This document shows, piece after piece, positions 1 through 4,754 of a stretch of DNA of 24,000 bases; position 1 is the stretch's first letter; every line of letters begins with the position of its first letter. The notes beneath the pieces are model-generated. The model saw nothing but the letters and a program-made list of their open reading frames with translations. It was not told the origin of the DNA and did no database searches. The translations under genes were made by a program, and so were the position numbers. Source of the stretch: Ferruginibacter sp. (lineage in GTDB: Bacteria; Bacteroidota; Bacteroidia; Chitinophagales; Chitinophagaceae); the NCBI GenBank assembly GCA_037719665.1, contig JBBJLU010000024.1, forward strand, positions 12,770-36,769, given 5' to 3'.

Positions 1-765
1 CGAAGGGGAAAGTTTTATTCCGGTATTTCCGGCCTGGTAATGCCGGGGCCAAGATCAACCTATCCGCCGGATTTCCGGGATAAGAGCCGCTTGGAGTATT
101 ACGCTTCTTTATTCAACAGCCTGGAGATAAACAGTTCCTTTTATAAAACGCCCAAAGAAACCACTGTAATTAAATGGGCAGTGGCCGTACCTGAGCAATT
201 CAAATTTACTTTTAAATTGTCCAAAGCTATCACGCATGTCAAGTGGCTGGATTATAATGAAGATGATGTAGAGCCATTCATGAAAACGATCGGGTATGCC
301 GGCCAGAAAAAAGGCTGCCTGCTGATACAATTCCCCCCTTCGTTAAAGATCGACAGGCTGGATCGGCTGCAAAAACTGTTGAGCGATATAGTTTGGAACA
401 ATGAAGATCAGTGGCAGTTGGCCGTAGAATTTCGTCATGCTTCCTGGTATGAGAAAGAAGTGTATGAGATCCTGGAAGAATATAAAGCCATTCCTGTATT
501 GCAGGATATCCCGGCATCTGCCACACCGGTACATGAAATAACATCTGATTTTATTTACAGGAGATTCCATGGTCCCGACGGTCGGTACCGCGGAAGTTAT
601 TCCGATGAATTCTTAAAGGAACATGCGGAGCAGATCCGCGATTGGCTCAGCGGCGGTAAAGATGTGTATTGTTATTTCAACAACACCATGGGCGATGCTG
701 TTAAGAATTTGTTGACCCTTCAGGAGTTTGTTGGGCTTACAACTATCGAATTAGCGGATAAATAA
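1..765 (+). CDS. DUF72 (YecE/UPF0759-like) family protein, 5' end outside the window
   Basis: Frame 1 is open from nt 1 (RRGKFYSGISGLVMPG...), so the listed ATG at 40 is probably internal. SLEINSSFYKTPKETTVIKWAVAVPEQFKFTFKLSKAITH and the YRRFHG...YRGSYSDEFL segment are typical DUF72 motifs. Confidence 0.8.
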   Translation, partial: RRGKFYSGISGLVMPGPRSTYPPDFRDKSRLEYYASLFNSLEINSSFYKTPKETTVIKWAVAVPEQFKFTFKLSKAITHVKWLDYNEDDVEPFMKTIGYAGQKKGCLLIQFPPSLKIDRLDRLQKLLSDIVWNNEDQWQLAVEFRHASWYEKEVYEILEEYKAIPVLQDIPASATPVHEITSDFIYRRFHGPDGRYRGSYSDEFLKEHAEQIRDWLSGGKDVYCYFNNTMGDAVKNLLTLQEFVGLTTIELADK

Positions 766-794
766 AAGGTGCGGATCTTTCCGCACCTTTCTTT
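765..794 (+). terminator. Rho-independent terminator after the DUF72 gene
   Basis: AAAGGTGCGGA (765-775), loop TCTT, TCCGCACCTTT (780-790): a perfect 11-bp stem followed by CTTT. Confidence 0.6.
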
Positions 795-1037: not shown

Positions 1038-3911
1038 ATGGGCTTAACTAAATACCGCGATAAACGTTCTTTTACAGAAACCCCTGAACCTAAGGGTGGC
1101 AAGTCGGAGGACAGCGACTTAAAGTTTGTGATCCAAAAGCATGCAGCATCACACCTGCATTATGATTTTCGCCTGGAGATGCGCGGCGTGTTGAAAAGCT
1201 GGGCCGTTCCGAAAGGGCCCTCCACTGACCCTTCGGTAAAAAGACTCGCGATGATGGTAGAAGATCATCCTTATGACTATAGGAATTTTGAAGGGATCAT
1301 TCCCAAAGGCCAATACGGCGGTGGTACAGTGATCGTATGGGATGAAGGCACTTACAGTACAACTGATGAGGAACCCGCCGGTGATAAGAAATCCGCAGAG
1401 AAAATATTAATGGCGGCATTGGAGAAGGGCAAGATCAAAATCATAATGAAAGGCAGGAAATTAAAAGGTGAATATGCACTCGTGAGATCCCACGGAAGAG
1501 AAGAAAATGCATGGTTACTGATGAAGGTTAAAGATAAATATGCGTCCGTGACTGATATTACAAAAAAAGAAAAGTCAGTATTGTCGGGGAAGACACTAAA
1601 GCAGGTTGCGGCCACGTCAGAAAATATTTACGGACAGGCTAAAGAGGAACTAAAAGAAAAAAAAAGGATAACAAGTTCAAAAAAGAGTGCGGGAGAAGTA
1701 CAACCTGACGCAACGTCTGCAAATGTTGACTTGCCAACTTTACTTAAAAAAGGAATAAAAAAGGCGCAGCCCGCTGATCTTGCACCAATGCTTGCCACAC
1801 TTACGGATAAGCCCTTTGATGCGCCCGGTTGGCTCTATGAAATTAAATGGGACGGATACCGTGCATTGGCATACACAAATAAAAAGACTGTAGAACTTGC
1901 ATCCCGAAATAATAAATCTTTTAATGAAAAATTTTACCCGATCGTAACAGCATTAAGATCCTTCGGGATGAACGCCGTGTTGGACGGGGAGGTAATTGTA
2001 GCGGATGAAAAAGGTATGGCCAATTTCGGAGACCTGCAAAACTGGCGTAGCGAAGCAGACGGTAACCTCCTATTTTATGTTTTTGATATACTGTGGTACG
2101 AAGGAAAGGATCTTACACATTTACCCCTCACGGAGAGACGGGCCATACTAAAAGCTATACTTCCTGAATCAGATAATATTTTGCTGAGCAATGATTTTGA
2201 AACATCGGGTCTGGATTTCTTTGACGCAGCCGAAAAAATGGGATTGGAGGGTATCATGGCTAAGAAAGCAGACTCTGCTTATAACAGCGGCGGAAGAACT
2301 ACTGATTGGCTAAAAGTAAAAACAGCTATACGCCATGAAGTAGTGATCGGGGGCTATACTAAAAACGAAGGCACGGCAAAACCTTTCAGTTCCCTGCTTG
2401 TGGGTGTGTATGAAAAAGGAAAACTGGTTTACAGCGGGAAGATCGGTACCGGTTTTAACGATAAGACACAAAAGGAAATGATGGCGTTGTTTAAACCGCA
2501 TATCATCAGCGAATCGCCGTTCAGTACGGTGCCCGATATCAACCAGCCTTCGCGATTCCGACCTGTCCCGCCAAAGGCTACGGCTACATGGCTTAAGCCG
2601 GTGCTGGTTTGCGAAGTAGCGTACCGTGAATTAACCACAGACGGTATCATGCGGCATCCATCTTTTCAGGGGATGCGTATTGATAAGGCTGCGAAGGCTG
2701 TGGGGAGGGATAAGGTGGTGAAGCAAGGGGAGCTAAAAGATGAAAAAGGGAAAAAAGAGAAAAAAGTGGGGCTAAGAGAACAAAGAGAGAAAGAGGTAAA
2801 AGGGGGGCTAAAAGTAAAACAAGGAGAACAAGGTATAAAAAAAGGGCTAAGAGAACAAAGAGGGAAAGAGAACAAAGAGGGGCTAAAAGATAAACAAGGA
2901 GAAAAAGGGGAAAAAGTGAAACAAGATGGAAAAGTAAAAAACGCAGATGTGGCGAAATATATAAAAGCACCGAAAGCGGCGGAAAGGAAGACGTTGTTGA
3001 ATCCTACTGATGAAACGCAGGTGAGGAAGATCAACGGTAAGGAGATAAAGTTTTCCAACCTCAACAAGATCTACTGGCCGAAAGAGAATATTACCAAGCG
3101 GGAATTCCTGAATTATTATTACCGCGTGGCACCGTATATTTTGCCCTGGCTGAAGGATCGGCCTCAATCTATGAACCGTTTTCCTAATGGCATTACCGGT
3201 AAAAGCTTTTATCAAAAAGATGTAACCGGAAAAGTTCCCGATTGGGTAGAAACTTTCCCATACGTGAGTGAGGGTATCGATAAAAAGTTCATGCTGTGTA
3301 ATGATGAGGCTGCATTGCTATATATGGCGTCACTGGGATGTATAGAAATGAATCCCTGGAGCAGCACGTATAAAAAACCCGACAACCCGGATTGGTGTGT
3401 GATCGATCTTGATCCGGATAAAAACCATTTCGATAAGGTGATTGAAACGGCATTGGTCACAAAAGAAATATTAGATGCTGCCGGTGCAGACAGTTATTGT
3501 AAAACTTCCGGCTCTACGGGACTGCACATTTACATTCCATTGGGAAAAAAGTATGATTATGAAGCATCTAAAGAATTCGCACGCCTGATCGCTCACCTTG
3601 TGAATGAGCGGTTGCCGAAGTTTACAAGCATAGAAAGAATGACAGCTAAGCGCCGCGGCAAATTATACATCGATTTCCTGCAAAACAGGCCACAGGCCAC
3701 GCTGGCAGCCGCTTACTCAGTAAGGCCGAAACCCGGTGCCACGGTATCAATGCCCCTGCATTGGGAAGAGGTGAAAAAGGGATTGAAGATGACGGACTTT
3801 ACGATCCATAACGCTCCCGCGCGGCTGGCAGAAACAGGAGATATTTTTAAACCCGTTTTGGGTAAAGGGATCAATATGGAAAAGGTATTGAAAAAAATAA
3901 GTGAGGAATAG
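1038..3911 (+). CDS. ligD: ATP-dependent DNA ligase LigD, three-domain form (3'-phosphoesterase, ligase, primase-polymerase)
   Basis: The N-terminus MGLTKYRDKRSFTETPEP...FVIQKHAASHLHYDFRLE is the LigD phosphoesterase signature. The central part has PMLATL...YEIKWDGYR (KxDG adenylation motif). The C-terminal part (KFSNLNKIYWP...MNRFPNGI...KTSGSTGLHIYIPL...IDFLQN) is the LigD polymerase domain. I prefer the ATG at 1038 over the track start at 939, because the 33 upstream codons do not resemble LigD. Confidence 0.9.
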   Translation: MGLTKYRDKRSFTETPEPKGGKSEDSDLKFVIQKHAASHLHYDFRLEMRGVLKSWAVPKGPSTDPSVKRLAMMVEDHPYDYRNFEGIIPKGQYGGGTVIVWDEGTYSTTDEEPAGDKKSAEKILMAALEKGKIKIIMKGRKLKGEYALVRSHGREENAWLLMKVKDKYASVTDITKKEKSVLSGKTLKQVAATSENIYGQAKEELKEKKRITSSKKSAGEVQPDATSANVDLPTLLKKGIKKAQPADLAPMLATLTDKPFDAPGWLYEIKWDGYRALAYTNKKTVELASRNNKSFNEKFYPIVTALRSFGMNAVLDGEVIVADEKGMANFGDLQNWRSEADGNLLFYVFDILWYEGKDLTHLPLTERRAILKAILPESDNILLSNDFETSGLDFFDAAEKMGLEGIMAKKADSAYNSGGRTTDWLKVKTAIRHEVVIGGYTKNEGTAKPFSSLLVGVYEKGKLVYSGKIGTGFNDKTQKEMMALFKPHIISESPFSTVPDINQPSRFRPVPPKATATWLKPVLVCEVAYRELTTDGIMRHPSFQGMRIDKAAKAVGRDKVVKQGELKDEKGKKEKKVGLREQREKEVKGGLKVKQGEQGIKKGLREQRGKENKEGLKDKQGEKGEKVKQDGKVKNADVAKYIKAPKAAERKTLLNPTDETQVRKINGKEIKFSNLNKIYWPKENITKREFLNYYYRVAPYILPWLKDRPQSMNRFPNGITGKSFYQKDVTGKVPDWVETFPYVSEGIDKKFMLCNDEAALLYMASLGCIEMNPWSSTYKKPDNPDWCVIDLDPDKNHFDKVIETALVTKEILDAAGADSYCKTSGSTGLHIYIPLGKKYDYEASKEFARLIAHLVNERLPKFTSIERMTAKRRGKLYIDFLQNRPQATLAAAYSVRPKPGATVSMPLHWEEVKKGLKMTDFTIHNAPARLAETGDIFKPVLGKGINMEKVLKKISEE
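2768..2917 (+). repeat. Two tandem 75-bp (25-aa) units inside the LigD ligase-polymerase linker
   Basis: GCTAAGAGAACAAAGAG starts at 2771 and 2846. GCTAAAAG starts at 2807 and 2882. The period is exactly 75 nt. The peptides are GLREQREKEVKGGLKVKQGEQGIKK and GLREQRGKENKEGLKDKQGEKGEKV. Confidence 0.85.
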
Positions 3912-3996
3912 CATTTCCGATCATTACAACTAACCCTGTAATAAAATTTGGCATACAAATTTCATAGTTACTGCACACGAACTAAAACCTACACAC

Positions 3997-4596
3997 ATGA
4001 AAAAGTCACCAGCTGCGAAATCAGCACCTAAAAAATCAGCCCCTGCACCTAAAAAGGCTGCTGCTAAAAACAGCGGAAAAATTAAAGCTAAACCGGATGC
4101 AGCCGAAGGGCTGAGGGACCTGTTCATTGATGAACTGAAAGATATTTACTGGGCGGAAAAAGCATTGACGAAAGCCCTCCCGAAAATGGCGAAAAACGCC
4201 ACCAACCAGGGCCTGAAGAACGCACTTCAAAAACACCTGGTGGAAACACAAAACCAGATCGTACGATTGGAGCACGTATTTGTGTCTATCGGTGAAAAAG
4301 CCCGTGCCAAGAAATGCGAAGCTATGGCGGGACTTATTAAAGAAGGAGAAGGCATCATGGAAGATACACAGGCGGGCGTTGTAAGAGATGCGGGTATCAT
4401 TTCTGCCGGACAAAAAACAGAACACTACGAAATAGCCAGCTACGGTACCCTTTGCGCATTTGCAAAAACACTGGGTTTGGAGAAAGCAGCTTCCTTGCTT
4501 GCAGAAACACTGGAGGAAGAGAAAGCAGCAGATTCCAAGTTGAGCGAAATTGCCGGCCACTCCATTAATATCGGTGCGGCAAGTGCAGATAAATAA
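3997..4596 (+). CDS. DUF892 (YciE/YciF-like) ferritin-like protein with an N-terminal Lys/Ala/Pro-rich tail
   Basis: The core DELKDIYWAEKALTKALPKMAKNA...HLVETQNQIVRLEHVF...CEAMAGLIKEGE matches the DUF892 pattern. The first ~35 aa are MKKSPAAKSAPKKSAPAPKKAAAKNSGKIKAKPDA. Confidence 0.8.
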   Translation: MKKSPAAKSAPKKSAPAPKKAAAKNSGKIKAKPDAAEGLRDLFIDELKDIYWAEKALTKALPKMAKNATNQGLKNALQKHLVETQNQIVRLEHVFVSIGEKARAKKCEAMAGLIKEGEGIMEDTQAGVVRDAGIISAGQKTEHYEIASYGTLCAFAKTLGLEKAASLLAETLEEEKAADSKLSEIAGHSINIGAASADK

Positions 4597-4638
4597 ACCG
4601 GGAGTTTAATTTTATACATTTTGAACCGTACTCGTTTT

Positions 4639-4669
4639 AAAGCGCTGTGAAAACGGCGCTTTATTTTTT
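4639..4669 (+). terminator. Rho-independent terminator after the DUF892 gene
   Basis: AAAGCGCTG (4639-4647) pairs with CGGCGCTTT (4654-4662) with one G-U pair. The loop is TGAAAA and ATTTTTT follows. Confidence 0.6.
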
Positions 4670-4754
4670 AACTTATCGGTCCTGTCTTTAAAGGGTATAA
4701 TACACCTCTTTGGACTGCATTTTGCCTTATATGTGTGTATAAAATTTTTGAATT

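Follow-up and report, generated by a model that had tools for sequence, protein, structure and literature searches.

Why does a gene for a ferritin-like protein with a histone-like tail lie directly behind ligD, the ligase gene of non-homologous end joining (NHEJ) in bacteria? The question is raised by 24,000 nucleotides of DNA from Ferruginibacter sp. (GenBank assembly GCA_037719665.1, contig JBBJLU010000024.1, positions 12,770 to 36,769 of the forward strand), which we will refer to as the window. An initial annotation of the window proposed that the protein, a member of the DUF892 family (a DUF is a domain of unknown function), is a Dps-like, DNA-protecting partner for NHEJ. We found that the association of DUF892 with NHEJ genes is real as a shared neighborhood of stress and DNA-repair genes, and not as a required NHEJ partnership. 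The explanation that we favor, with somewhat better than even confidence, is that the protein is a nucleoid-tethered, Dps-like ferroxidase of a stress and DNA-repair regulon.

The gene and the parts of its product are:

3997..4596, + strand: tailed YciF-like (DUF892) gene, 199 amino acids (open reading frame, translation, Pfam family PF05974, PDB matches, AlphaFold2 model, Foldseek)
3997-4095, + strand: codons 1-33, a disordered Lys/Ala/Pro tail; codons 34-199 encode a five-helix ferritin-like core

The initial annotation had correctly described this reading frame, its Lys/Ala/Pro N-terminus and its kinship to the stress proteins YciE and YciF. The translation matches PF05974 over residues 39-192 (E = 1.5e-59; a score of 201.1 bits, where the cut-off is 23.7; positions 2-156 of the 159-position profile), and the protein is of the ferritin-like YciF type with an H1-like polycationic tail. 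(We dismissed an opposite-strand reading frame of 174 amino acids at 4036-4560, and other overlapping frames, as shadows of the + strand gene, which is conserved.) The core belongs to YciF in particular, and is more than merely ferritin-like. In phmmer comparisons it matched YciF from Salmonella (4eru, E = 8e-42) and from E. coli (2gs4, E = 2e-39), with YciE at E = 3e-7. An AlphaFold2 model built with 42 homologs as input (mean pLDDT 90) has five helices, at residues 34-67, 71-97, 108-123, 128-158, and 162-197. Using Foldseek, we found that the model superimposes on 2gs4 and 4eru with a target-normalized TM score of 0.93, an rmsd of 1.0-1.1 Å, and 51-52% identity over the whole core; the TM score to YciE was 0.78-0.80, and Dps and bacterioferritin chains were distant (E > 0.009).

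YciF from Salmonella is an iron-binding ferroxidase that assembles into a complex of about 110-120 kDa, and its activity is impaired when Q54, E113, or the bridging E143 is mutated (bioRxiv 10.1101/2023.01.20.524870). In the phmmer alignment, these three residues correspond to Q87, E145, and E175 of the window protein, and in the alignment of 42 homologs, E54, E142, H143, E145, and E175 (window numbering) are invariant. Because the ligand residues are conserved with YciF, the metal site is likely to be functional, and by homology we infer that the protein is a ferroxidase.

The tail (residues 1-33) has a net charge of +10 and is 31% lysine, 43% alanine plus proline, and just 3% aspartate plus glutamate. 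In the AlphaFold2 model it is coil, without predicted secondary structure (pLDDT about 60). The tail must be translated, because there is no ATG, GTG, or TTG from codon 2 to the invariant residues of helix 1, and starting at the next ATG (M64) would remove those residues. We rejected the idea that it is a signal peptide because it has no hydrophobic stretch. Instead, it has what defines an H1-like or PAKKA-type tail: repeats of Lys, Ala, and Pro (with Ser or Thr), a strongly basic character, and nearly no acidic or hydrophobic residues.

Across homologous sequences, the polycationic tail is a family trait, and the tailed protein looks to be the standard form of YciF in Bacteroidota. We fetched 80 homologous loci along with their 6-kb flanks; the sources were Flavobacterium, Chitinophagales, Cytophagales, Saprospiraceae, and a variety of metagenome-assembled genomes (MAGs). 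All 80 proteins have a basic, low-complexity N-terminal extension, whatever the neighboring genes, and the extension ends at a conserved junction (G-x-[VI]-K-[AP]-K-x-x-A-A-x-G-L). Among 83 Bacteroidota homologs, tail length has a median of 30 amino acids and runs from 3 to 75; net charge has a median of +6 and is +4 or above in 71 of the 83. The median composition is 25% K+R, 4% D+E, and 7% hydrophobic; lysine outnumbers arginine by 649 to 38; and 44 of 82 tails have at most one acidic residue. The tails from Flavobacterium are rich in serine and threonine (median 29%) and are less H1-like than the tail in the window. Free drift of sequence and length at a fixed composition is what would be expected of a disordered segment that binds a polyanion.

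A scan of the whole genome for Lys/Ala/Pro segments identified just three other proteins:

G000:C71:19776-21170: topoisomerase I (TopA), with a Lys/Ala/Pro C-terminus
G000:C34:68962-69441: ribosomal protein L22, with a Lys/Ala/Pro C-terminus
G000:C15:71746-72147: a 133-amino-acid protein that is nearly all Lys/Ala/Pro repeats

The 133-amino-acid protein has the same KKSAPKKAA-type repeats as the tailed DUF892 protein. It matches the NCBIfam model for a histone H1-like DNA-binding protein (NF038053) weakly and below the cut-off (E = 8.6e-5), and it is a candidate for a bacterial histone-H1-like nucleoid protein. The C-terminal tail of TopA recalls the lysine repeats of actinobacterial TopA. Because the other carriers are TopA, L22, and the H1-like protein, this type of tail goes with nucleic-acid-binding proteins in this organism.

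In other bacteria, comparable low-complexity tails bind DNA or modulate DNA binding in Ku from Mycobacterium smegmatis (PMC3553676) and in actinobacterial TopA (PMC7398561), and the flexible, lysine-rich terminal tail of Dps gives non-specific DNA binding and condensation (PMC9103930, PMC12642551). By analogy, the tail of the YciF-like protein may bind DNA. It shares its composition, its SAPKK and PKKAA units, and its position as a terminal appendage with the tails of mycobacterial Ku and HupB, actinobacterial TopA, and the C-terminal domain of histone H1. However, those tails sit on DNA-binding proteins, while the folded YciF domain has no known DNA-binding activity, and therefore the tail would be the sole tether.

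The features around the gene, all on the + strand, are:

1..765, +: DUF72 gene (Tm1631/YecE family; PF01904, E = 9.5e-66), whose start is 8 nt before the window
765..790, +: terminator-like hairpin 3' of DUF72 (11-pair stem with 6 GC pairs, and a T-run)
999-1003 and 1011-1026, +: two overlapping GGCAT boxes before ligD (GGCAT, and TGGCAT-N5-TTACA), sigma-54-like (-24/-12)
1038..3911, +: ligD, with phosphoesterase, ligase, and primase-polymerase domains (from Pfam) and a Lys/Glu-rich linker
3949..3964, +: TGGCAT-N5-TTTCA box, 48 nt upstream of the ATG of DUF892
4638..4671, +: terminator-like hairpin 3' of DUF892 (11-pair stem at 4638-4663, then TTTTTT)

The ATG at 1038 is probably the start of ligD, and the GTG at 939 that was chosen by the ORF finder is probably too early, because the phosphoesterase match opens two residues after the methionine at 1038. 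(The linker of LigD, between the ligase and polymerase domains, is a long Lys/Glu/Gly-rich repeat at 2686-2990.) As the initial annotation stated, DUF892 is co-oriented with ligD and just downstream of it, although the gap is 85 nt (3912-3996) rather than 86. Also as stated, there is no obvious terminator between the genes: a consensus scan found none on the + strand of the gap. With a terminator-like hairpin on either side and none in between, ligD and DUF892 are bracketed as one unit.

The window was also said to lack Ku, and we found none in its 24,000 nt. The assembly (2.62 Mb in 94 contigs, 86% complete) has a single Ku, at G000:C43:41265-41801, on another contig, with over 25 kb between it and each contig end; it is not adjacent to ligD. 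It lies directly 3' of a topoisomerase IB (TopIB) gene and beside a gene of the Pyrid_ox_like family. The GC content is unremarkable. None of three genomes from the same genus (G182, G194, and G266) has LigD, Ku, or DUF72, and just one has a weak DUF892. Relative to these genomes, gene order is kept up to tsf and then breaks, so that the whole left part of contig C93 is non-syntenic. We tried to determine if the genes were inserted as an island, but because nothing left of tsf is conserved, no empty site could be demonstrated.

To what extent does the pairing recur? We searched 300 Bacteroidota genomes that were at least 90% complete for DUF892, Ku, and the polymerase domain of LigD. About 26 of these genomes hold a strong DUF892 together with LigD or Ku, and in 6 of them, from four taxonomic families, the genes are within 10 kb of each other (this genome, G026, G042, G062, G291, and G146). 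With two to three copies of the genes per genome and a genome size of about 4 Mb, chance would yield about 0.4 such genomes. G026, which is from another family, has the same order of LigD followed by DUF892 as the window. In both G026 and G042, the LigD near DUF892 is a second copy, the one without Ku. In G062, DUF892 is followed by a permease and TopIB and is divergent from Ku-LigD.

Among the 80 homologous loci, LigD or Ku was within 6 kb of DUF892 in 6 (7 of 81 in the tally of neighbors). Four Flavobacterium loci have DUF892, Ku, and LigD in that order on one strand, with a divergent UDG upstream in three of them; one Flavobacteriales MAG has Ku-LigD at 3.3 kb from DUF892; and one Ginsengibacter MAG has LigD adjacent to DUF892 and divergent from it. 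A maximum-likelihood tree of 84 DUF892 proteins (12 of them linked to NHEJ genes) requires 9 changes in the state of linkage, at least 6 of them imposed by branches with good support. Linkage has therefore been gained or lost time and again, in at least 6 independent arrangements. It recurs far above chance, but in a minority of loci and in several arrangements.

Within two families, DUF892 is more frequent in Ku-bearing genomes: it is present in 5/5 genomes with Ku and 1/11 without Ku in family f1, and in 7/7 with and 5/15 without in family f5. Nevertheless, DUF892 is absent from 10 of 34 Ku-bearing genomes, including all of the sampled Ku-bearing genomes from families f12, f21, and f23, and it is present without Ku in about 25 genomes. 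Since 10 of the 34 do without it, DUF892 is not a required component of NHEJ.

Other genes are more common next to DUF892. The most frequent neighbors are small receiver proteins (41 loci), Pyrid_ox_like/GSP26 proteins (18 loci), and DUF72 (17 loci). In 16 loci, almost all from one clade of Flavobacterium, a Nei/Fpg-like glycosylase gene lies 20-94 nt downstream of DUF892; a Nei-like gene and then DUF72 immediately follow DUF892 in 16 loci. TopIB is nearby in 13-14 loci, the large catalase KatE in 12-13, and UDG in 4. Further neighbors include DUF4142, YtxH, DUF2383, SDR, AraC, and sugar-nucleotide genes. Catalase, Nei-like plus DUF72, TopIB, and receiver genes are all more common as neighbors than NHEJ genes are. 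Flavobacterium loci (L022, L023, L025, L035, L036, L047, and others) have a conserved string of TopIB, DUF5661, two unknown genes, DUF892, Nei-like, DUF72, Pyrid_ox_like, and two receiver genes. We also observed that TopIB and Pyrid_ox_like flank both ku in this genome (L003:7094-9012, on C43) and the tailed DUF892 in Flavobacterium.

DUF72, which is just upstream of ligD in the window, has been predicted to be an endonuclease-IV-like TIM barrel (PMC3828134). Of 39 Bacteroidota genomes with LigD, 9 (the window genome, G115, G150, G292, G284, G013, G023, G214, and G291), which represent seven taxonomic families, have DUF72 about 3 kb or less from LigD; in 8 genomes, DUF72 is no more than 8 kb from DUF892. 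The linkage of DUF72 to LigD looks stronger than that of DUF892 to LigD.

The initial annotation suggested that DUF892 might also have its own promoter, and we did find a conserved promoter-like box upstream of it. The -7-like element that had been noted, TAAAATTTG at 3942-3950, is present, but with one base more than the Bacteroidota consensus TAnnTTTG; AAAATTTG matches that consensus at 7 of 8 positions. The element overlaps the conserved TGGCAT box at 3949-3964. Related boxes, of the form GGCA[CT]-N5-TT[GTA]C, are upstream of all three units of interest: ligD, DUF892, and topIB-ku on C43, which is preceded by GGGCAC-N5-TTTCT. In 10 homologous loci of the Chitinophagaceae type, GGCAT is found 37-62 nt before the ATG of DUF892, and GGCAY-N5-TT is in that position in 8 of 80 loci, while shuffled sequences had it in 0.2 loci on average and in 3 at most. 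The 13-position pattern common to the two boxes in the window occurs just four times in the genome. Separately, about 1.1 kb after ku (C43:43167, + strand) there is a sequence, GAGGCATAAAAATTTCATAA, that is identical to the DUF892 box at 17 of 20 positions and is 77 nt before a gene for a TamB-like protein (1748-1787 amino acids).

A sigma-54 promoter has GG at -24 and a nearly universal GC at -12, with 10 bases between them. The boxes in this genome have the GG and the spacing, but the dinucleotide at -12 is TC (DUF892 and topIB) or AC (ligD). From their sequences, the boxes before ligD, DUF892, and topIB-ku should be treated as sigma-54-like. The genome encodes rpoN and three enhancer-binding proteins, and its dnaK carries TTGGCAC-N5-TTGA. 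In Flavobacterium psychrophilum, dnaK is sigma-54-dependent (PMC9723704). The boxes in the present genome, including the similar one before its dnaK, have the -24/-12 geometry of the sigma-54 SM4 promoters of that species; the boxes before ligD, DUF892, and topIB-ku lack the GC at -12.

Flavobacterium loci have another design. Two TGTAA sites that are 21-23 nt apart lie 77-90 nt before the ATG of DUF892 in 17 of 80 loci (L013, L014, L017, L032, L038, and 12 more), as compared to a shuffled mean of 1.1. The tandem sites precede a TAnnTTTG -7 box, frequently with small AraC and receiver genes in the vicinity. In α-proteobacteria, NHEJ genes belong to general-stress regulons: in the EcfG/RpoE2 regulons of Sinorhizobium and Sphingopyxis, ku and ligD are transcribed along with stress genes such as catalases (PMC6379672, PMC7083833). 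This is a precedent for stress-regulon logic here, although those regulons differ from our case in phylum and in sigma factor.

How might these observations fit together? In the explanation that we favor, the core would oxidize or sequester Fe2+, as suggested by its fold and ligands and by the activity of its Salmonella homolog. The tail would anchor the oligomer to a polyanion, which is most likely the DNA of the chromosome, as suggested by its composition and by the analogy to Dps, H1, mycobacterial Ku, and TopA. Iron would thus be removed where Fenton chemistry would harm the DNA of non-growing cells. DUF892 would be made together with end-joining and base-excision enzymes once growth stops, as part of a variable gene set (LigD/Ku, DUF72, Nei-like glycosylase, topoisomerase IB, UDG, large catalase, GSP26-like, YtxH, and DUF4142). 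This set would be driven by sigma-54-like GGCAY-N5-TT boxes in this genome (ligD, DUF892, and topIB-ku), which we infer are co-induced, and by tandem TGTAA sites in Flavobacterium. Given a shared set of stress and repair genes with shared boxes, the position of DUF892 behind ligD would mean that the two genes are co-regulated and serve the same end, the integrity of the quiescent chromosome, and would not point to a required physical role in end joining.

YciF from E. coli and Salmonella Typhimurium is the closest known system: it has the same fold, and the ligands that were tested by mutation are conserved. Like yciF, which is in the RpoS-dependent yciGFE operon, the window gene is associated with stress, in its case by its stress-gene neighborhoods. 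However, enterobacterial YciF has just 166 amino acids and no basic tail, in contrast to the window protein and its 83 Bacteroidota relatives, with disordered, polycationic N-terminal tails of 15-75 amino acids; also, the neighbors of the window gene are DNA-repair enzymes, and the type of promoter differs. The protein resembles Dps in being a helical bundle of the ferritin superfamily with a flexible, lysine-rich terminal tail and, as we would predict, in its ferroxidase chemistry, its production under stress or starvation, and its role of keeping iron and H2O2 chemistry off the DNA. By analogy, the Dps-like logic of a ferroxidase plus a basic tail is reasonable. The protein is not a member of the Dps family, though: its only Pfam match is DUF892, without PF00210. 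Furthermore, the metal site of YciF is within a subunit, and the complex of about 110-120 kDa from Salmonella is not a 12-mer cage with centers between subunits.

Several observations weigh against this explanation. About 90% of DUF892 loci have no NHEJ gene nearby, and co-occurrence across genomes is confounded by lifestyle and by shared ancestry, as related genomes are not independent. The role of the tail in DNA binding is read from its composition, and RNA, polyphosphate, and membranes are alternative polyanions. Because the tail is present whatever the neighbors, it says nothing specific about NHEJ, and among the genomes with linkage, the DUF892 copy near the LigD modules of G291 has no tail while the copy in the LigD-DUF892 pair of G026 has a short one (+3). 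The boxes lack the GC of the sigma-54 -12 element, and the pattern that was counted in 8 of 80 loci was partly defined from those very sites. The strict TGGCAT pattern is not enriched in the genome (14 matches versus about 16 expected, mostly inside genes), and a scan with a position weight matrix (PWM) did not yield a clean regulon: ligD ranked just 16th. The genes behind other intergenic matches to the box are a mixture (CMD/AhpD-like, START-like, desaturase, YkuD, glycosyltransferase, and TamB-like). The PWM, which was built from 10 orthologous sites, was swayed by AT-richness and by reverse-complemented start codons. Given these results, we rejected a TGGCAT-box regulon and keep only the narrow statement that ligD, DUF892, and topIB-ku all carry the box. 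Finally, no ferritin/Dps protein (PF00210) was found in this 86%-complete assembly, while PF00210 is present in 14 of 14 control genomes and in 29 of 40 genomes from the same family. The absence may stem from the incomplete assembly, so the replacement of Dps by the tailed DUF892 remains a weak hint.

The proximity to ligD could instead mean that DUF892 is a dedicated NHEJ accessory that works at DNA ends in physical contact with LigD, and in trans with Ku, where it might shield the ends from iron damage, recruit or stimulate LigD, or partly substitute for an adjacent Ku. This would account for the co-oriented pair in the window, with its short gap and its terminators outside, for the same order in G026, for the operon-like DUF892-Ku-LigD arrangement in four Flavobacterium loci, and for the Ku-less LigD copies near DUF892 in G026 and G042. 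However, whole families run NHEJ without DUF892; many genomes have DUF892 but no Ku; neither the presence nor the strength of the tail follows the linkage; and DUF892 has its own conserved promoter box. Moreover, enterobacterial YciF acts in bacteria that do not have NHEJ. The specific partnership with NHEJ that the initial annotation proposed is not supported in that form by these comparisons (a tail that is independent of the neighbors, NHEJ genes in the minority among those neighbors, and 10 of 34 Ku-bearing genomes without DUF892), and we consider an accessory role to be improbable. At the other extreme, ligD and DUF892 might be unrelated genes that are adjacent by chance in this genome. 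In favor of this, the three genomes of the same genus do not share the gene order left of tsf, and most DUF892 loci have no NHEJ gene nearby. But chance does not explain linkage in 6 of about 26 genomes, in several independent arrangements, where 0.4 are expected, nor the upstream box that ligD and DUF892 have in common, nor the linkage of DUF72 to both ligD and DUF892 in many genomes, so this is very improbable.

A third alternative concerns the tail and not the pairing. The protein could act in general stress, with a tail that, rather than tethering it to DNA, binds RNA, ribosomes, polyphosphate, or anionic membranes, drives the formation of condensates, or acts as a hydrophilin-type protectant against desiccation; being next to ligD would then reflect the clustering of stress genes in islands. 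The Ser/Thr-rich, less H1-like tails of Flavobacterium would fit with this, as would the many stress neighbors that do not act on DNA (catalase, YtxH, DUF4142, SDR, and sugar-nucleotide genes) and the presence of ribosomal protein L22, which binds RNA, among the three other tailed proteins. On the other hand, these tails are polycations with almost no acidic residues, unlike the polyampholyte LEA and hydrophilin proteins; the repeats match those in the H1-like protein and the TopA tail of the same genome; and operon-like coupling to DNA enzymes (Nei-like plus DUF72, LigD/Ku, TopIB, and UDG) is both recurrent and specific. We consider a tail that does not act on DNA to be unlikely.

The nucleoid-tethered ferroxidase can be extended to a broader proposal, which we offer tentatively and which may well not hold: that Bacteroidota have a class of nucleoid-associated protector, a YciF-type ferroxidase on an H1-like tail, that is a functional analog of Dps and is part of a phylum-wide, stress-inducible module (LigD/Ku, DUF72, Nei-like, and TopIB) under sigma-54-like or AraC-type control.

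YciF and the tails of Dps-type proteins were already known. What appears to be undescribed is that the lysine-tailed YciF is the standard form in Bacteroidota; that DUF892 is linked to DNA-repair genes, in a way that can be quantified and has been re-invented repeatedly; that the tail of the YciF-like protein matches the genome's own H1-like protein; and that DUF72 is linked to LigD. Among the papers listed in our literature searches, we found nothing on tailed DUF892 proteins or on a link between DUF892 and NHEJ, and none that mentions both DUF72 and LigD.

DUF892/YciF is a widespread stress family, and its sole biochemistry, the iron binding and ferroxidase activity of the Salmonella protein, is silent on where in the cell it acts. 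A polycationic-tailed variant that is found across a phylum, in operon-like strings with repair enzymes, provides a concrete and cheap hypothesis, which is that these proteins protect DNA from iron. The linkage of DUF72 to LigD likewise nominates DUF72 as a partner enzyme for bacterial NHEJ. To our knowledge, Bacteroidota do not have RpoS, SigB, or an EcfG general stress factor. The tailed YciF, which may be a DNA-tethered protector, adds to the picture of how the quiescent chromosome is protected in these bacteria.

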